Source: Dehalococcoidia bacterium | GTDB taxonomy: Bacteria; Chloroflexota; Dehalococcoidia; Lucifugimonadales; JADFKI01 | Assembly (NCBI GenBank): GCA_965214635.1 | Contig: OZ243964.1 | Span: 2,572,764-2,636,763, forward strand | Reading direction: 5' to 3' | DNA: 64,000 bases | Shown: piece after piece, positions 4,958 through 18,550 of the stretch | Numbering within the stretch: position 1 is the stretch's first letter | How the letters are laid out: each line of letters starts with the position of its first letter | Translations under genes and position numbers: made by a program | Notes under the pieces: model-generated | The model's input: only the letters and a program-made list of their open reading frames with translations | The model's database searches: none | What the model was told of the DNA's origin: nothing

Positions 4958-5752
4958 CTAAAGTCCCACCCGCTCTGCTATGGGGAAGGCGGGCGTGCTA
5001 TAGACCGACGCGTCGGTGAGCTTGGGCATCATGGGCACAGGCTTTCCTTCCAGCATCGCCTTGGGCACATGCAGCGTCATCGCCTCAGCATGTCGGGCGC
5101 TGGTAACCTCGCTCGCAATCCGCAGCGCCTCTCCCAGCTCAGGCGTGCGCTTTCCGCGCGGCGAATGCGTGTCCGATGACAGGATGTGCGCCATGCCGCA
5201 GCGCATTAGCTCCAGTGCGAACAGGCGCACAGGCTCGCCCCAGTGCCCCAACAGGCTGCCGCGCGTGAGCTGGCTCAGCATGCCCATTGCGATGTAGCGT
5301 TGCAGCAGTTGGGGGTTGCGCTGGAACGCCTCGATGCGCTCCGGGTGTGCGAACACTGGTGTCAGCCCCTGTGCTTGCAGCGCCACAAGCGCCGGCTCCA
5401 CGAATGCGTGCTCGCCGAAGAAGGGCATCTCCACCAAGATGTAATGCGTGCCGTTCATCGTCAGCGCCTTGCCGTCGGCGACATCTTCGGGCAGCGATGC
5501 GTCGATGTGGTTTTCCATACCCAGCGCCAGCCTGATGCCGATACCCTCAGCGTCTACACGCCGCCTGAAGTCGTCGGCAACGGCGCGTAGGTGCGCCACT
5601 GACGACAGCTCTGTAACATCCTTGCGGTGCGGCGTGGCGAGGATGAGCTGCGTGCCGTTTGCGGCGGCGATGCGCGCAATGTCTAGGGCGTCGTCCATGC
5701 AGGTGGGGCCGTCGTCCACGCCGGGCAGGATGTGTGCGTGCGTGTCGTACAC
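4958..5752 (-). CDS. PHP-family tyrosine-protein phosphatase (CpsB/CapC/YwqE-like)
   Basis: DTHAHILPGVDDG, ATPH, AHPER, SSDTH. Confidence 0.88.
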   Translation of the reverse strand: MYDTHAHILPGVDDGPTCMDDALDIARIAAANGTQLILATPHRKDVTELSSVAHLRAVADDFRRRVDAEGIGIRLALGMENHIDASLPEDVADGKALTMNGTHYILVEMPFFGEHAFVEPALVALQAQGLTPVFAHPERIEAFQRNPQLLQRYIAMGMLSQLTRGSLLGHWGEPVRLFALELMRCGMAHILSSDTHSPRGKRTPELGEALRIASEVTSARHAEAMTLHVPKAMLEGKPVPMMPKLTDASVYSTPAFPIAERVGL

Positions 5753-5928: not shown

Positions 5929-6627
5929 CTATCCCCTGAAATGGATGCGGCGAAAGCCCTCGGCATACGGCACATTCGCCATCTGCCCCTGCCGCTGTGC
6001 GTTGGCTTTCACGAAATCGTCCACATTCCTGCCCGAGCTTGACACTTGGCTGGCGTGCTTTTTGAGCGCGGTTATCTTCTGCTCTATGGTGTCGGTGATG
6101 TCGATGAAAGTGTCGGGGCGCTCCGTTCCCCACATCAGCACATCTGCCACCTTGTGCGTCTCCAATCCATCTTGGATGTGCTCATTGTAGTGCAGGAAGT
6201 CGCGGGCGTAGGGAAACACGGCGTCCAGCGTTACCTGCCCGGAGATGCGGTGGTCGCGGTGCATGTAGAATGTGGTGCGAAACGGGTCTGTGCAGAAGAC
6301 GACATTGGGCTTGTGCTTGCGTATCGCCCTGACGAGTTCGCCGCGAAACTTCGCAGTGTCTTCCAGCTCGCCATCGCCATAGCGCAAGTATATGACCTCT
6401 TTGACGCCGAGCGCTGCTGCCGCTGCTGCCTGTTCCTGCTCGCGGACGGCGGCGAGCTTGGCGGTCGTCATCTCCGGGTCGCTCGTCCCCTTGTCCCCGT
6501 TGGTGCACAGCACGAACACCACCTCCGTGCCGGCGGCGACCCACTTTGCCACCGTCCCGCCAACGCCACCTTCGCCATCGTCCGGATGCGGTATCACCAG
6601 CATCGCCTTCTCTGGTCTGTCGAACAT
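5929..6627 (-). CDS. PIG-L/LmbE-family Zn deacetylase (MshB/Mca/BshB superfamily)
   Basis: PHPDDGE, TNGDKG, HRDH, ALKKHASQ. Confidence 0.88.
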   Translation of the reverse strand: MFDRPEKAMLVIPHPDDGEGGVGGTVAKWVAAGTEVVFVLCTNGDKGTSDPEMTTAKLAAVREQEQAAAAAALGVKEVIYLRYGDGELEDTAKFRGELVRAIRKHKPNVVFCTDPFRTTFYMHRDHRISGQVTLDAVFPYARDFLHYNEHIQDGLETHKVADVLMWGTERPDTFIDITDTIEQKITALKKHASQVSSSGRNVDDFVKANAQRQGQMANVPYAEGFRRIHFRG

Positions 6628-6909
6628 TTTGTCCTCGAGTGATTTGGGAGTTGATATTTGTCAGTTATCACGCTTGGTTGTGTGAATAGGTATGTTCAGT
6701 ACGCTGAATATCATAATGCGATATGCGGATTAAGGGCAAGTATTGGCAAACAAAAGACGGGAGTTGTGAGAATGCGCTTGTGACGCATGTGGATGACCAA
6801 TTGATGACTGACAGTGCTGAAATGATAATGCCCAAGCGTATGTGATACAATTCGCAAGCGGGATGATGCGCGCGGCGTTCACAGGTTCACAGAGGGAGGA
6901 TGTTCTGCA

Positions 6910-7833
6910 TTGAGTACGGGGACGATACGACGCTTTGAGTGGGCTGATGTCAGCGGGCTTGTCTCCGTGTTCAACGAGATTGGCGGGCTGAGCGGGACGG
7001 CGCGGGAACACGATGCGGACACGCTCAGCCGCATGCTTTCCCTGCCCGGCTGCGACCCGCAGCGCCACTGCCTCGTCGCTGTACAAGACGATGAGATTGT
7101 GGGATATTCGCTCACTGCGTATGAGCCGCCCATTGGGCGCGCGGTGGCGAGTGGCGGCATAACGCAGGCGTACAGGCGGCGCGGCATCGGACGGGCGCTG
7201 CTGTCGCACACCGTGGCGCATGCGGCGGCGTTGGATGTGGATGTGCTGCACATAGAGGTGCGCGCAGATGACTGCGTCGCAAACGATATGCTTGCGTCCG
7301 AGGGCTTTGCCGCCATCAAGACGCACTGGCAGATGCGCTGGCAGTGCAGCGATGCGCCGGAAGTGCGCCTGCCCGAGGGGTTTGTGGTGCGCCCGCTTGC
7401 GACAGGGCAGGACGAACCCGCGCTGACCGAGCTGCAGAACATCGCATTCGGCGAGAACTGGGGCTTTAGCCCCAACACTGTGGAGCAGATTACGGCGCGC
7501 GTGGCGAACAACCGCGGGGGACCGGAGAGCATCTTGTTCATCGTCGAAGACGGTGAGCCGGCGGCGTACAACTGGACGATGCTGGACGATGCGCCTAGCC
7601 CCGAAAGCGAGCGGGCAGGCGTCATATCCATGACCGGCGTCCATCCGCGCTATCGCGGGCGCGGCATAGGGCGCGCAGTGGTTGCCGCAGGCATTGCGCA
7701 TCTAGTGGTCAGGGGTGCGTCCGCCATATATTTGGAGGTGGATGCCGACAACACGCCCGCCCGCGAGCTTTACCTCAAACTCGGCTTTCGCAAAGTGGGT
7801 AGGACCGTGTGGCACGAGCTGCGCTTCAATTAA
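6910..7833 (+). CDS. Tandem-GNAT acetyltransferase, mycothiol synthase MshD-like
   Basis: Two acetyl-CoA motifs (YRRRGIG, YRGRGIG); C-terminal GVHP...YLEVDADNTPARELYLKLGF resembles MshD; TTG start after GGGAGG. Confidence 0.72.
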   Translation: MSTGTIRRFEWADVSGLVSVFNEIGGLSGTAREHDADTLSRMLSLPGCDPQRHCLVAVQDDEIVGYSLTAYEPPIGRAVASGGITQAYRRRGIGRALLSHTVAHAAALDVDVLHIEVRADDCVANDMLASEGFAAIKTHWQMRWQCSDAPEVRLPEGFVVRPLATGQDEPALTELQNIAFGENWGFSPNTVEQITARVANNRGGPESILFIVEDGEPAAYNWTMLDDAPSPESERAGVISMTGVHPRYRGRGIGRAVVAAGIAHLVVRGASAIYLEVDADNTPARELYLKLGFRKVGRTVWHELRFN

Positions 7834-8621
7834 GACGATCTAGGCGCATTTAGGTTGCGGTTGGCTTCGTTCGCAGCCGCCTCAATCTCCTGCATCTTGT
7901 TGAGCCTCGCGCGGTCGAAGAAGGGTGAGCGCAGCATCCCCAGATTCCCCGGCACGACCACGCCGCCGGAGAACACCGTCTTCATCGCCTGCTCCACGGT
8001 GAGGGTGCTCTCGTACACCTTTTCTTCGGGCACAAACGCGAGGTTGCCCGATGTGGGGTTCGGCACTGTGGGGATATAGACAACGATAAGCTCGGTGTCG
8101 TCGTCATCCGACGGCTGGCTCTGCCCTGTGGTGAACCCGAGTGCGAGGTTGCCTGCGCGCGGCCATTCCACGAACACCACGCGGCTAACTTCGTGCCCCG
8201 ACGGTGTGGTAAGGCTGTCCGTTGCCTGTTTCGCCACGCCGTAGATGCTCTTGACCACTGGGATGTGCGACAGTATGGCGACCTTCACATCCACCGCTCT
8301 TCGTCCAACATGGATGGTCATGAGCGTCCCGAATATGTAGAACAGGATCAGGGTGATGATGACTCCCAGCCCTGGGAATGGGATAGGCACGGGGCCTATG
8401 CTCATGTTGTCGGGCATGACGGGGTGGAATATTCCACCCTCTCCGAAATAGAAGCCCTCGATGCTCACATACACGAACTGTATAATGATGATCGTAACGA
8501 ATAGTGGCAGCAGTACCAGAAACCCTGCCAGCACATGGCCCCAGAAGTGCCGCTCTATGCGTATGTGCACAGATGGACGCTTTCCCCCCTCTTCGCTGTT
8601 GGCTTTATTAGACCTTCTCAT
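7830..8621 (-). CDS. DUF502-family membrane protein
   Basis: N-terminal TM segments, IPVVKSIY, VYIPTVPNPTSG, VFSGG. Confidence 0.87.
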   Translation of the reverse strand: MRRSNKANSEEGGKRPSVHIRIERHFWGHVLAGFLVLLPLFVTIIIIQFVYVSIEGFYFGEGGIFHPVMPDNMSIGPVPIPFPGLGVIITLILFYIFGTLMTIHVGRRAVDVKVAILSHIPVVKSIYGVAKQATDSLTTPSGHEVSRVVFVEWPRAGNLALGFTTGQSQPSDDDDTELIVVYIPTVPNPTSGNLAFVPEEKVYESTLTVEQAMKTVFSGGVVVPGNLGMLRSPFFDRARLNKMQEIEAAANEANRNLNAPRSS

Positions 8622-8623
8622 TA

Positions 8624-9847
8624 TTAGCCTCCTGCGATGTTTTCAAGCGCCAATCCTAGCGTGGTAGAGTAGCAGTTTAACATACGCGATGCTACGCCGC
8701 CCCAGCTCATGGTCTGTGCCTTGCGCTGGGCGGCGTTGTCCATTGATGCGCGCAGTGCAGGGTTGGCGAGCAGCGTATCGAGCCGATGTGCGAAAGGCTC
8801 GGCGCAGCGCCAAGGCACGAGGTAGCCGGTTTCCCCATGATCTATGAATGTCTTCAAGCCACCCACGCGCGACACCACAACCGGTGTGCCGCATGCCATC
8901 GCTTCCAGCGCCACTAGTCCGAAGCTTTCGTAGTAGGTGGGAAGTGCGAACACATCGGCGGCGCTGTAATACGCAGGCAGCTGCTTTTGCGGCAAAGAGC
9001 CGGTGAAGCTGACCATGTCGCTGACGCCCAGCTCGGATGCGAGCGCCTTGAGGCGGTGTAGCTCTGCGTCATGGTCTAGGTTGCCCCCTACGATTATCAG
9101 GCGTGTGAGGCTGCGCTCGTCCAACAGTGTCAGCGCTCGCAGCAGGATGTCCAGCCCCTTGAACGGCTCTATACGCCCCACATACAGGATAATATGCTTG
9201 TCAAGCAGCCCAAGCGACTGACGAGCCTCGCACTTGTCCATCGGCTGGAACATGGACAGGTCTACGCCCGGGGGGATAATGCGCACCTTGCTCGTGGGCG
9301 TGCCGTAGAGCTTGGTGAGGTCTTCCTTTTCCACACTTGTGGACACCACGATGGTGTTCGCCTTGTCGCTCACCATGCGCTCGATGTGGGCGCGCTGTTT
9401 GGGTTCCTGCTCGCCGGGACGGGCGCGCTGCTTGACTCGAGCGAGGGTGTGGAATGTGGTGATGTGCGGTGCGCTCCAGCGGCGGCTTAATTCTATGCCG
9501 ATGCGCCCGGACAGCCAGTAGTGGCTGTGGAGCAGGTCATACGAAAGCCCCTCGCGCTTGCGGAACGCATCTACGGCGTTGACGAACTCTGGGATGTACT
9601 GATACATGTCGTGCTTGCTGCAAATGAGCGGCCCAGCGTTTAGGTGCACCATGCGCACCCTGTCGCCTATGTGGACGATCTGCGGCTCTTCGGGGTTGTG
9701 GCTGCGGGTGAACACATCCACATGGTTGCCGCGCTTGCCGAGTTCGCGCGCAATCTCTTGCACATAGACATTCATTCCGCCGGCGTCTTTTTCGCCGAGC
9801 CGCGCCACCGGGCAACTATGGAAGCTTATCAGCGCAAGTCTGAGCAT
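8624..9847 (-). CDS. mshA: GT4 glycosyltransferase, D-inositol-3-phosphate glycosyltransferase MshA-like
   Basis: DAGGMNVYV, HSHYWLSG, FHTLARVK, ESFGLVALEAMACGTPVV. Confidence 0.8.
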   Translation of the reverse strand: MLRLALISFHSCPVARLGEKDAGGMNVYVQEIARELGKRGNHVDVFTRSHNPEEPQIVHIGDRVRMVHLNAGPLICSKHDMYQYIPEFVNAVDAFRKREGLSYDLLHSHYWLSGRIGIELSRRWSAPHITTFHTLARVKQRARPGEQEPKQRAHIERMVSDKANTIVVSTSVEKEDLTKLYGTPTSKVRIIPPGVDLSMFQPMDKCEARQSLGLLDKHIILYVGRIEPFKGLDILLRALTLLDERSLTRLIIVGGNLDHDAELHRLKALASELGVSDMVSFTGSLPQKQLPAYYSAADVFALPTYYESFGLVALEAMACGTPVVVSRVGGLKTFIDHGETGYLVPWRCAEPFAHRLDTLLANPALRASMDNAAQRKAQTMSWGGVASRMLNCYSTTLGLALENIAGG

Positions 9848-10054
9848 CAGTTCGCTATCCGTTCATTCGTACTTGTTTCCGCAACCGCCATCTCATTGTC
9901 CTCTCTAATATATCTGCCCCGGATAGCGAACGACCTTACGCTCGATGCTGGGAGCACTCAAACTCGCGCTGTCCCGCCGTCCGACATTTCTGTGTGTGTT
10001 TCGCAGCGATGACGGGGTGGGCATCCTGCGAACATCCCCATCTGCGGAGGCGCA

Positions 10055-11032
10055 TCAGCGCCGCACCACCAGTTCGTGGACGGTTTGGTCTGCTCCGCCG
10101 AGGTTGTACTTGTAGCGCTCATTGCCGCGCAGGAAGTCGAAACACTGCCTGCCGCTCTCTATCGCCTCGCGGATGCACAGCGCCTTGTTCAGCAGCCCCA
10201 CGCTGAGGGATGAGTATGCCGGGTCGTAGCCGCTGTTGTACAGCAAGAAGTTGTCGGCGTAGTCGAAGCAGATGCAGGACGCCACCGGCGCATTGTCCAC
10301 TTCTAGGAAGAAGAGGTTGAACTGCCCACGCTCAGCTAGTTCCTGCGCCAGTTCGCCGAAGAACTGCTCGCGCTCGGCTGTGAGGAAGCCGTCTTTGTCT
10401 GGGCTGCTTGCGCGCATCAGCCGAAAGAACTCGGGCATCGCCTCCGCCACTGCGTCCGCATCCGAGACGAAGTACTGCTTGGCGGATGCGCCGTTTTCTA
10501 GGCGGCGCAGCTTGCGGCGCAGTTCGTGGCGGTCTTTCTTTCGCAGCGACATCAAGTATTCGTCCCAAGACGGCTCCAGCGCCTTGAAAGGCGACACATC
10601 CTCATCGCTGATTTCTGCGCGCAAGCCGTGCTGTTCGGCGAGGGCGGGCAGGTGCGTCAATGTGTCCGAGTCGCCCCGCAGCGATTTCAGCATCAGCGTG
10701 TGCCAGTCCATTCGCAGCGCATAGTGCCACACGGCGTCATAGAAGTCGGATTCGCAGCCGCGCCCCACTAGGAAGTCGTGATAGTCGAACAGGTCGGTGT
10801 CGCCGAGGAACGAGAGCGTGTCGCCGCTTATCATCAGCGGCGCGATGCCGAGCAGTGTATCGTCGCGTCGCACGGACAGGATTTGCAGTTCGGCATCGCC
10901 GCCGTATCGCTCCCACCACAGCTGCTGCCACCATGGAGTTACAAATATGGTGTTTGCTGCAGTGTGCGGCAGCAGCGCCTCCCATTCGCAGGCGATGCTC
11001 TCGAAGTTCTCTTGGAGGATACAAATACCCAT
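10055..11032 (-). CDS. CelD/BcsL-like (Acetyltransf_6, Fem-type double GNAT fold) acyltransferase
   Basis: SWDEYLMSLRKKDRHELRRKLRRL, YNSGYDPAYSSLSVG, FDFLRGNERYKY; start ATG 11032 just after the folE stop. Confidence 0.82.
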   Translation of the reverse strand: MGICILQENFESIACEWEALLPHTAANTIFVTPWWQQLWWERYGGDAELQILSVRRDDTLLGIAPLMISGDTLSFLGDTDLFDYHDFLVGRGCESDFYDAVWHYALRMDWHTLMLKSLRGDSDTLTHLPALAEQHGLRAEISDEDVSPFKALEPSWDEYLMSLRKKDRHELRRKLRRLENGASAKQYFVSDADAVAEAMPEFFRLMRASSPDKDGFLTAEREQFFGELAQELAERGQFNLFFLEVDNAPVASCICFDYADNFLLYNSGYDPAYSSLSVGLLNKALCIREAIESGRQCFDFLRGNERYKYNLGGADQTVHELVVRR

Positions 11033-11034
11033 AC

Positions 11035-11592
11035 CTAAATCTCCCTCAGCAGCCATAGGAACTCTTGGCGCGCGGTGGCTTGAGTTCTCAGACTGCCCCT
11101 AGTGGCGGTGGTAACGATTTTGCTGCCGGGCTTGCGAGCGCCCCGCAGCGTCATGCACATGTGCTCTGCGCTGATGACGACCGCAGCGCCGGACGCATCG
11201 AGCGTGTCGTAGATGGTGTCGGCAAGCTGGCCGGTGAGCCGCTCTTGCAGCTGCGGGCGGCGGGCGAGGATGTCCAAGGCGCGGGCGAGCTTGGATGCGC
11301 CGACAACGCGCCCGGTGGGTATGTAGCCGATGTGTGCGCTGCCGTAGAACGGCAAGAAGTGGTGCTCACAAATGGAGTAGAACGGCACATCGCGCAGCAG
11401 CACGGGTTCGTCGTGTGCCTCATCGAAGCTGGTGGACAGCACGCTTGCGGCGTCTTTGCCGATGCCGCAGAAGAACTCGCCGTACATCTCGGCGACACGG
11501 CGCGGGGTGTCTGCCAAGCCCTCGCGCTTCGGGTCTTCGCCGATGCCGAGCAGGATTGCCCGTACGCCGTCTCTTATCGTGTCATAGTCCAT
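11035..11592 (-). CDS. folE: GTP cyclohydrolase I
   Basis: GEDPKREGLADTPRRVA, SICEHHFLPF, RRPQLQERL, HMCMTLRG. Confidence 0.95.
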   Translation of the reverse strand: MDYDTIRDGVRAILLGIGEDPKREGLADTPRRVAEMYGEFFCGIGKDAASVLSTSFDEAHDEPVLLRDVPFYSICEHHFLPFYGSAHIGYIPTGRVVGASKLARALDILARRPQLQERLTGQLADTIYDTLDASGAAVVISAEHMCMTLRGARKPGSKIVTTATRGSLRTQATARQEFLWLLREI

Positions 11593-17896: not shown

Positions 17897-18550
17897 CTAG
17901 TCTAGCACGCCCTTGGGCCACGGTGGCTGCGGGCGCTTGATTTCGCCGAAGTAGTTGCGATGGCTTGCGATTGCGATGTAGTGCTCAAACGAGGCTACGG
18001 CGTCTTCATCAGACGGGATGAACGCCTTGAGATAGGCGGTGTTGCCGTTCTCGAACACATATGTGGGCGTGCCGAAAATGCCCTGCGAGACGGCTTCTTC
18101 GTGGTCTGCGCCGATGGTCTTGCGAAGCTCAGGGTCTTGCATATCCTCGCGCATCTGTGCGGTGTCCAAGCCCACGCTTTCGGCAAGCTCTAGTATCGGC
18201 TCGGAGTCGTTGAGGGGTATGCGCCCCCCGCTGCCATGCCGTGCCGTGAGCAGCGCAAGGTGGAACTTGGCGTGCGCTTCCTTGCCCTGCCTGCGCGCTG
18301 CCTCCGCCGCAATCTGCGCTATCAGCGAGCGCCCCTGCGTGGCGTCATCCTCGTCCCACACCTTCCAGTCGGAATCTGTGCCCTCTGCCTTCTGCTTCAG
18401 CGTGAAGGCGTTCTGCTCAAGCGAGAAGTTCTTCCATGTGATGTCCAAGTCTTCCCCGTACTCGCGGTGCACCTTATCCAGCCACACGGCTGTATTGTAC
18501 ACCCAGGGTCAGGCGTAGTCCCCGTATATCTGCATTCGGATTTTCTGCAT
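17897..18550 (-). CDS. Putative selenoprotein, DsbA/thioredoxin fold, Rv2466c (mycoredoxin-2)-like; Sec at codon 14
   Basis: AAAGGAG SD, ATG 18550, MQKIRMQIYGDYA-TGA(18511-18509)-PWVYNTAVWL in frame with ORF 17897..18502; cis-Pro GTPT; C-terminal FGEIKRP; hairpin 3' of the TGA. Confidence 0.8.
18466..18503 (-). promoter_or_regulatory. SECIS-like hairpin
   Basis: GGUGUAC/GUGCACC lower stem, CAGCC/GGCUG upper stem, GUGU apical loop 21 nt after the UGA. Confidence 0.65.

Follow-up and report, generated by a model that had tools for sequence, protein, structure and literature searches.

A Fem-fold GNAT as candidate tRNA-dependent replacement for the mycothiol ligase MshC in Dehalococcoidia and other Chloroflexota

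Mycothiol is, to our knowledge, treated as a trait of actinomycetes. We know of no small protective thiol that is established for the Chloroflexota, a phylum to which the organohalide-respiring Dehalococcoidia and the very abundant SAR202 clade of the ocean belong. The Actinomycetota pathway consists of MshA, MshA2, MshB, MshC and MshD, and as far as we know the MshA2 phosphatase is still unidentified in actinomycetes. MshC, the enzyme that attaches cysteine, is a tRNA-independent paralog of cysteinyl-tRNA synthetase (CysRS), and Fem/MprF-type ligases work with paralogs of aminoacyl-tRNA synthetases (passages of Iyer and co-authors, PMC2922099). Those passages do not describe a system that joins a Fem-type GNAT to an MshA-like enzyme. 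Literature searches (supplementary files lay outside their scope) found no Fem-type ligase in a mycothiol-like pathway and no mycothiol in Chloroflexota; one SAR202 paper lists only a 'mycothiol maleylpyruvate isomerase' annotation. Here we describe a gene cluster from a Dehalococcoidia bacterium that may hold such a system. It lies in a stretch of 64,000 nucleotides (the window; C1:2572764-2636763, where C1 is contig OZ243964.1 of assembly GCA_965214635.1). A double GNAT protein of the Acetyltransf_6/FemAB-like kind (Fem-GNAT) is encoded directly upstream of, and in the same orientation as, an MshA-like glycosyltransferase of family GT4. On balance, we lean towards reading the Fem-GNAT as a replacement for MshC that depends on Cys-tRNA and makes a mycothiol-type thiol.

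The host genome is a single contig of 2.67 Mb and is 99.8% complete. Among named genomes, those of uncultured Dehalococcoidia and of the SAR202 cluster are its nearest relatives. An initial annotation of the window had proposed that the organism makes mycothiol or an analogue and that the Fem-GNAT may stand in for MshC by using Cys-tRNA, or may add a different acyl group. It had also named what would speak against this: a canonical mshC elsewhere in the genome, a GNAT without conserved linkage to mshA, or an MshA that belongs with sucrose-type GT4 enzymes. The genes on which it built, an MshA-like GT4, a PIG-L deacetylase, a divergently transcribed MshD-like tandem GNAT, DUF502 and folE, all lie where it had placed them (Table 1). 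For the Fem-GNAT gene, the end at 10055 stands and the start shifts: the longest open reading frame begins at 11056, not at 11032. The window is free of CysRS-like genes, as annotated, with the two CysRS-family matches of the genome at C1:1780037 and C1:2435951.

These two matches are also what the MshC model finds. No protein in the whole genome exceeds the MshC cut-off; the best scores for TIGR03447 are 315 and 209 bits, compared to the 485.1 bits required. Both proteins are full-length CysRS types, one a housekeeping CysRS beside ispDF (315 bits) and the other a fusion of CysRS with a GT2 domain (209 bits). The search of the whole genome thus gave no canonical mshC. BshC is likewise absent from the whole-genome profile search. 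The inositol-1-phosphate synthase Ino1 is present (125 bits), near a gene for a CDP-alcohol phosphatidyltransferase.

Across the phylum, the profiles of mshA and the GNAT against mshC give an either/or distribution. We used one set of 201 Chloroflexota genomes for all profiles. Three of these genomes are flagged as unpublished (G078, G185 and G213), and no claim is made on them alone. MshA-like GT4s occur in 145 genomes (TIGR03449, E <= 1e-50). A profile of Fem-type proteins (alignment A1) matches 79 genomes, 64 of them at E <= 1e-60. Many genomes carry, besides CysRS, a second paralog that scores better on the MshC model. A genome was called MshC-like positive if its best match had E <= 1e-104, or if it had at least two matches with a best E <= 1e-99. 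By this rule, MshC-like paralogs are present in 103 genomes. Eight of the paralogs were extracted, and all eight are 388-420 amino acids (aa) long, score 360-410 bits for TIGR03447 and end at positions 324-398 of 466 in the cysS model, without the anticodon-binding C-terminus.

Among the 145 genomes with GT4, 52 carry only the Fem-type gene and 81 only an MshC-like gene; both are present in 6 and neither in 6. Of the genomes with neither, four have a completeness of 58-91%, a fifth shows a partial match to Fem and the sixth is a borderline case under the MshC-like rule. The 56 genomes without GT4 hold Fem in 6 cases, an MshC-like paralog in 16 (12 of them in family f35) and none of these genes in 34. 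Fisher's test of Fem against MshC-like gives p ~1e-25, uncorrected and with related genomes that are not independent. Both ligase types are found within each of the families f40, f48 and f63. The order of the cluster is mirrored too: GT4 - PIG-L - MshC-like in an MshC-type genome (L127), and Fem - GT4 - PIG-L in a complete Dehalococcoidia genome of 1.36 Mb (L136). Since the MshA-like GT4s and the MshC-like paralogs lie below the curated cut-offs, standard annotation would miss them or mislabel them as CysRS.

The ligases appear to be exchanged within one pathway. We placed 76 GT4 sequences from Fem-type and MshC-type genomes in a maximum-likelihood tree (IQ-TREE quick search, LG+G4, SH-aLRT support). 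The proteins group by taxonomic family and not by ligase type, with the two types interleaved. Fem-adjacent and MshC-type GT4s form sister groups in the f48 clade (support 100), and the f40 clade (support 99) is mixed. The MshC label requires 15 changes on this tree, of which at least nine are forced by well-supported branches. The acceptor-site residues of GT4 are equally conserved in Fem-type and MshC-type genomes. Such a pattern is that of non-orthologous displacement inside a single pathway.

Alternatively, second GT4 copies could point to two parallel pathways. We rejected this idea: the copies form a separate paralog clade (support 100) that also occurs in genomes with a single ligase. 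They were seen at L151, L159, L168, L170, L178, L184, L189, L209 and L211, in Fem-type, MshC-type and mixed genomes. Two further observations concern the distribution of the ligases. One MshC-type genome of family f40 carries a Fem-type gene that is split over two frames (Table 1), either through decay after displacement or through an indel in the assembly. The 12 genomes of family f35 (for example L141) have an MshC-like paralog without GT4 (E <= 1e-50) and without Fem, and in two of them MshD exceeds its cut-off.

The linkage between the Fem-type gene and GT4 is conserved. Within the order, 40 of 41 sampled genomes (host included) encode a Fem-type protein, and the sole genome without it is 85% complete. 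The gene directly adjoins GT4 in all 20 order relatives examined over 20 kb (43-73% identity). It does so as well in 78 of 80 loci from a named Dehalococcoidia/SAR202 set; in one of the two others the contig ends after the gene, and the other is a locus without GT4. A GNAT that lacks conserved linkage to mshA, which would have spoken against the proposal, is thus not what we observe. The other neighbours in the 80 loci are thrC (56), folE (55), the tandem GNAT (51), DUF502, which follows GT4 (44), PIG-L (42) and a PHP phosphatase, usually right after PIG-L or DUF502 (27). A CysRS-type gene within 10 kb of the cluster was found in none of the 80 loci.

The GT4 enzyme itself is MshA-like. Against hidden Markov models (HMMs) it scores 374.9 bits for MshA, 145 for the next family, 117.7 for BshA and 109.6 for the sucrose-phosphate synthase domain. 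By the equivalog cut-off of 462.5 bits it falls outside the MshA family. Its best sequence match in PDB is MshA of Corynebacterium glutamicum (3c48, 287 bits). Nearly as close (263 bits) is the cyanobacterial Tll1590 (6kih), which we take to be a sucrose-phosphate synthase. The inositol-phosphate site of C. glutamicum MshA presumably consists of N25, K78, Y110, H133, T134 and R154. In the 3c48 alignment, N26, K78, Y110, H133 and T134 of GT4 align to residues of this site. R152 and E156 fit the RxxxE spacing of MshA, and all 76 Chloroflexota homologues compared keep both residues. A homologue search returned close SAR202-type relatives only, some of which JGI has named 'D-inositol-3-phosphate glycosyltransferase'. 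By its HMM scores and its inositol-phosphate-binding residues, GT4 resembles MshA and not the sucrose-type enzymes, although in the PDB search the margin is small. We propose that GT4 is a UDP-GlcNAc:inositol-phosphate GlcNAc transferase (GlcNAc, N-acetylglucosamine).

The position of folE suggests a different product, namely a glycosylated pterin. Here, folE would be coupled to the GNAT and GT4, and PIG-L would yield a glucosamine glycoside. The folE gene overlaps the Fem-GNAT gene by 22 bases and lies upstream in the 55 loci mentioned above, and GT4 weakly matches a tetrahydrobiopterin glucosyltransferase in the PDB search (46 bits). Yet GT4 is far closer to MshA, with its phosphate-binding residues kept. 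Furthermore, folE is missing from 25 of the 80 Fem-GT4 loci and from the clusters of small Dehalococcoidia genomes (L136), and thrC, which in the window lies further upstream of folE, is an equally frequent neighbour. A pterin product hence seems highly improbable to us. As a frequent upstream neighbour, folE is probably a passenger in the operon.

Two of the remaining proteins of the cluster resemble enzymes of thiol biosynthesis, with scores under the equivalog cut-offs. Among NCBIfam models, the PIG-L protein matches BshB1 best (109.3 bits, cut-off 182.5), and MshB gives 53.6 bits (cut-off 224). The tandem GNAT aligns to positions 34-291 of the 294 in the MshD model TIGR03448, and its two Acetyltransf_1 stretches reflect the tandem architecture; its score of 111.3 bits remains below the MshD equivalog cut-off of 163.1. 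Downstream of PIG-L lies the PHP phosphatase gene. We infer that its product is a candidate GlcNAc-inositol-phosphate phosphatase, the role of MshA2.

For the Fem-GNAT, a sequence search of PDB gave no match up to E = 1, and a look-up in the ESM Atlas returned only unnamed or BioF2-like Acetyltransf_6 clusters. With 20 bits for FemAB_like (PF04339, cut-off 27), next to 114.9 for PF13480, the protein does not qualify for the FemAB and FemAB_like families of Pfam. Its AlphaFold model (pLDDT 94) has the double-GNAT Fem fold. The best Foldseek match in PDB is Weissella FemX (E 4.6e-13, TMq 0.67), so the comparison with FemX that the initial annotation had suggested identifies the closest solved fold. 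The other top matches are a second FemX, Sba18/Sbb17, MprF, alanyl- and lysyl-phosphatidylglycerol synthase domains (A-PGS/L-PGS) and FemA. The matches that depend on aminoacyl-tRNA reach TMq values of 0.55-0.67, at 10-16% identity in the fold alignments.

Two of these matches are bound to an amino-sugar substrate. Sba18 and Sbb17 are 'aminoacyl-tRNA-dependent peptide synthases' crystallised with the amino-sugar compound streptothrisamine. According to a 2026 review (PMC12945691), Orf11 is Gly-tRNA-dependent and converts streptothrisamine to glycylthricin. Hence, the tRNA-dependent aminoacylation of an amino-sugar amine has a precedent. We propose that the Fem-GNAT is an aminoacyl-tRNA-dependent cysteinyl (aminoacyl) transferase that acts on glucosamine-inositol (GlcN-inositol) and replaces MshC.

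Alternatively, the double GNAT may use acyl-CoA and N-acylate GlcN-inositol or another intermediate of the cluster. We consider this very unlikely. The Pfam family is named acetyltransferase, and acetyl-CoA tandem GNATs and a glucosamine N-acetyltransferase do appear among the fold matches (2wpw, VipF, 5kf1). However, their TMq values (0.38-0.53) are lower than those of the aminoacyl-tRNA-dependent enzymes. The acetyl-CoA loop of GNATs has the motif Q/RxxGxG/A; in alignment A1, we saw no such motif in the block that is conserved at the C-terminal end. In addition, re-acylating a sugar that has just been deacetylated would leave the complementarity with MshC-like ligases unexplained.

FemX as the best fold match also brings to mind peptidoglycan cross-bridges, which FemX, FemA and FemB build. 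MraY has no match in this nearly complete genome, and 10 of 14 control genomes exceed its cut-off. Without MraY, a Fem enzyme of the cell wall would have no lipid I/II to act on, which makes a cell-wall role unlikely. Moreover, the Fem gene is linked to those for GT4 and PIG-L and not to genes for the cell wall. We therefore rejected a cross-bridge role, and we give it next to no chance of being right. The organism is probably without peptidoglycan, as is reportedly the case for cultured Dehalococcoidia.

The host genome further encodes enzymes of the kind that use mycothiol. Its S-(hydroxymethyl)mycothiol dehydrogenase scores 641 bits for TIGR03451 (cut-off 512.9) and 246 bits for the glutathione-dependent model. 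An MDMPI-family protein is present as well (TIGR03083, 54.8 bits, cut-off 50). In a third protein, a glutaredoxin domain of the mycoredoxin type (residues 9-82; TIGR02200, 89.8-93.5 bits, cut-off 89.5) is fused to a flavoprotein that resembles thioredoxin reductase (residues 93-393; 320 bits, cut-off 343). Of the 14 control genomes, only that of C. glutamicum passes the cut-offs of TIGR03451, TIGR02200 and TIGR03083. In this genome, which lacks mycothione reductase, the fusion is a candidate for an NADPH-dependent reductase that serves the thiol. One candidate for a mycothione reductase (C1:25208-26560) was rejected, since it is a dihydrolipoyl dehydrogenase (Lpd, 560 bits).

In the phylum sample, TIGR03451 exceeds its cut-off in 11 genomes. 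Five are Fem-only, four are MshC-only, one is MshC-like without a GT4 match and one is a genome of 58% completeness. In the MshC-like genome without a GT4 match (L219) the TIGR03451 gene adjoins the MshC-like gene. Family f40 has TIGR03451 orthologues at 654-667 bits in both ligase types. Of the 167 genomes that have at least one pathway gene, 40 give mycoredoxin-like matches (E <= 1e-22); the 34 genomes that have no pathway gene give none. These 40 comprise 10 Fem-only and 26 MshC-only genomes and 4 more in which the pathway is partly present. Judged by the distribution of the dehydrogenase and of mycoredoxin, the thiol of Fem-only genomes thus appears to be of the same kind as that of MshC-type genomes.

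This distribution bears on the possibility that what the Fem-fold enzyme attaches to GlcN-inositol is not cysteine but a different amino acid, such as Gly, Ala or Ser delivered by its tRNA, or a different acyl group. In that case an osmolyte, a signalling molecule or a surface glycoconjugate would be made in place of a thiol. The aminoacyl-tRNAs that known Fem-fold enzymes accept include those charged with Gly, Ala, Ser and Lys (PMC12945691). The pathway proteins score under the mycothiol equivalog cut-offs, and the genomes with both Fem and MshC-like genes would make sense if the two products differ. Such a product is difficult to reconcile with Fem-only genomes that carry mycoredoxin-like proteins and an S-(hydroxymethyl)mycothiol dehydrogenase above its cut-off but no MshC-like ligase. 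Nor does it fit with Fem and MshC-like genes that swap on one orthologous GT4 lineage, or with an MshD-like N-acetyltransferase within the cluster. We regard a different amino acid or acyl group as unlikely.

The cysteine ligase could also be the CysRS-GT2 fusion, with the Fem-GNAT in another role in the cluster. The fusion consists of a full-length CysRS (TIGR00435, 385 bits; best model PRK14536) and a C-terminal GT2 domain, and MshC, too, belongs to the paralogs of CysRS. The fusion could be a source of Cys-tRNA, or it could be the ligase. Every genome with the fusion also has a standalone CysRS. Unlike the MshC-like paralogs, it spans positions 1-459 of the 466 in the cysS model, and in none of the 80 loci does it come within 10 kb of the cluster. 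It was not found in six Fem-GT4 relatives of the order (G025, G026, G029, G030, G032 and G036), and most Fem-only genomes of the phylum, including complete genomes of 1.4-1.9 Mb, have a single CysRS-family match. For these last two reasons we rank the fusion as a minor rival, and quite an improbable one.

Several observations weigh against a Cys-tRNA-dependent Fem ligase in a mycothiol-type pathway. GT4, PIG-L and the tandem GNAT are all under their mycothiol equivalog cut-offs, and in the phylum sample neither the MshA cut-off (best 417 bits) nor the MshC cut-off is reached by any genome. The MshC-like rule rests on scores, and the genome counts are uncorrected for shared ancestry. Fem and MshC-like genes are not strictly exclusive, given the six genomes in which they co-occur, and a strong Fem match is found without an MshA-like GT4 (E <= 1e-50) in six genomes. 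An MshD-like protein was detected in only 45 of the 201 genomes and in none of the eight genomes of family f20, all of which hold Fem and GT4. The score of the mycoredoxin domain is barely over its cut-off. Mycothione reductase (TIGR03452) was not found in the host genome, where the best score is 235 bits compared to a cut-off of 635.65. A dedicated tRNA-Cys isoacceptor was not found either: there is one tRNA-Cys among the 48 tRNAs of the genome. A second CysRS, the fusion, is kept full-length in 32 of the 41 order genomes (and in part in 3 more) and could activate cysteine. Finally, the amino acid that a Fem enzyme transfers is not readable from its sequence. On a separate point, MshD was dropped as a marker of a shared last step: it is too divergent, and of the 45 detections only 7 exceed the cut-off, all in MshC-type genomes.

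Both parts of the initial proposal gain computational support. Mycothiol or an analogue as the product agrees with mycothiol-dependent enzymes in a genome that lacks MshC. The GNAT as a replacement for MshC agrees with the either/or distribution, the Fem fold and the linkage to GT4.

From family resemblance, gene context and distribution, we infer the following steps for a pathway with the Fem-GNAT as ligase. The MshA-like GT4 would put GlcNAc on inositol phosphate supplied by the Ino1 of the genome. A phosphatase, possibly the adjacent PHP enzyme, would remove the phosphate. The PIG-L enzyme would deacetylate the product to GlcN-inositol. The Fem-GNAT would then couple the glucosamine amine with cysteine taken from Cys-tRNA(Cys), a step for which actinomycetes have MshC, an ATP-dependent ligase. 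Lastly, the MshD-like tandem GNAT would acetylate the amine of the cysteine. The pathway would thus end in mycothiol or a near analogue of it, which would serve the S-(hydroxymethyl)mycothiol dehydrogenase, the mycoredoxin-thioredoxin-reductase fusion and the MDMPI-family protein.

If true, this would be the first known tRNA-dependent step in the synthesis of a redox cofactor, and the supply of thiol would be tied to the pool of charged tRNA used in translation. Aminoacyl-tRNA-dependent chemistry would extend from cell walls, lipids and antibiotics to cofactors. Confirmation would also provide a clean natural example of non-orthologous gene displacement, and it would name a candidate for the MshA2 phosphatase. 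The pathway is indicated in ~72% of the sampled Chloroflexota (145/201), with repeated swaps between ATP-dependent and Fem-fold ligases, the latter probably tRNA-dependent. A wider picture is possible, if somewhat short of probable. In it, most Chloroflexota would have a mycothiol-type compound as their main low-molecular-weight thiol and would make it with two interchangeable ligases, the Fem type with Cys-tRNA(Cys) being that of Dehalococcoidia/SAR202 and others. The PHP enzyme would be MshA2, and a DsbA/Rv2466c-like reductase containing selenocysteine would work alongside.

The reductase in question is a candidate selenoprotein elsewhere in the window, with a DsbA-like thioredoxin fold (Table 1). 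Over its full length it weakly matches the mycothiol-dependent reductase family Rv2466c-like (24.8 bits, under the cut-off of 27). When it is aligned with PDB 7dk9, its selenocysteine (U) falls on the active-site Cys. A gene for tRNA-Sec is also present in the genome. The link between the thiol cluster and this seleno-redoxin is only suggestive.

Table 1. Positions of the genes and proteins discussed. Coordinates without a prefix are positions in the window; C1 coordinates refer to the host contig. Bits are profile scores.
Feature	Position	Strand	Length (aa)	Profile match
CpsB/CapC-type PHP phosphatase	4958-5752	-	264	PF19567, 157.2 bits
PIG-L/LmbE deacetylase	5929-6627	-	232	PF02585, 107.8 bits
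Tandem GNAT, MshD-like	6910-7833	+	307	TIGR03448 (MshD), 111.3 bits, cut-off 163.1
DUF502 membrane protein	7830-8621	-	263	PF04367, 83.5 bits
MshA-like GT4 glycosyltransferase	8624-9847	-	407	TIGR03449 (MshA), 374.9 bits, cut-off 462.5
Acetyltransf_6/FemAB-like double GNAT (Fem-GNAT)	10055-11056	-	333	PF13480, 114.9 bits
folE (GTP cyclohydrolase I)	11035-11592	-		TIGR00063, 216.8 bits
Candidate selenoprotein (TGA=U)	17897-18550	-		PF01323, 62 bits
tRNA-Sec gene	C1:504708-504805			
Mycoredoxin-thioredoxin-reductase fusion	C1:883061-884260 (L231 3062-4261)	-	399	
CysRS-GT2 fusion	C1:2434907-2437093 (L041 4905-7094)	-	729	TIGR00435, 385 bits
Split Fem-type gene, MshC-type f40 genome	L217 5355-6300 (G080:C3:17351-18293)			

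Compared to the bacillithiol pathway (BshA, BshB and BshC), the cluster has a similar order of steps: a GT4, then a PIG-L deacetylase, then the addition of cysteine. The PIG-L protein even scores best on BshB1. However, BshA fits GT4 far less well than MshA (117.7 versus 374.9 bits), BshC is absent, and the acceptor residues fit inositol phosphate, not malate.

With the FemABX-type enzymes (FemX/FemABX, MprF, VlmA, PacB and Orf11/Sba18/Sbb17), the Fem-GNAT shares the double-GNAT fold, with a TMq of up to 0.67 to FemX. Orf11-type enzymes aminoacylate an amino-sugar amine from Gly-tRNA, which is the same chemistry as proposed here (PMC12945691). In contrast to these transferases, the Fem-GNAT has no sequence-level match to any solved structure, and identity in the fold alignments is 10-16%. 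The proposed acceptor, GlcN-inositol, and the proposed donor, Cys-tRNA, differ as well, and they would belong to a cofactor pathway and not to cell-wall, lipid or antibiotic synthesis.

Another close system is the MshC-type variant of other Chloroflexota. It has the same orthologous GT4 lineage, a PIG-L neighbour (L127) and, in f40, the same mycothiol-type dehydrogenase. It differs in its ligase, which is an ATP-type CysRS paralog of 388-420 aa and not a Fem-fold GNAT.

The Actinomycetota mycothiol pathway is similar in its MshA-like GT4 with inositol-phosphate residues, its PIG-L/LmbE enzyme and its MshD-like GNAT, and Ino1 and the downstream mycothiol-type enzymes are found in the host genome too. 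It differs in that here mycothione reductase was not found in the genome, all proteins stay under the equivalog cut-offs, and a Fem-fold GNAT takes the place of MshC. The genes are also clustered here, whereas in actinomycetes the mycothiol genes are scattered. By the curated cut-offs, then, the proteins are not MshA, MshB, MshC and MshD equivalogs; as a whole, the cluster would work like mycothiol biosynthesis with the ligase swapped.

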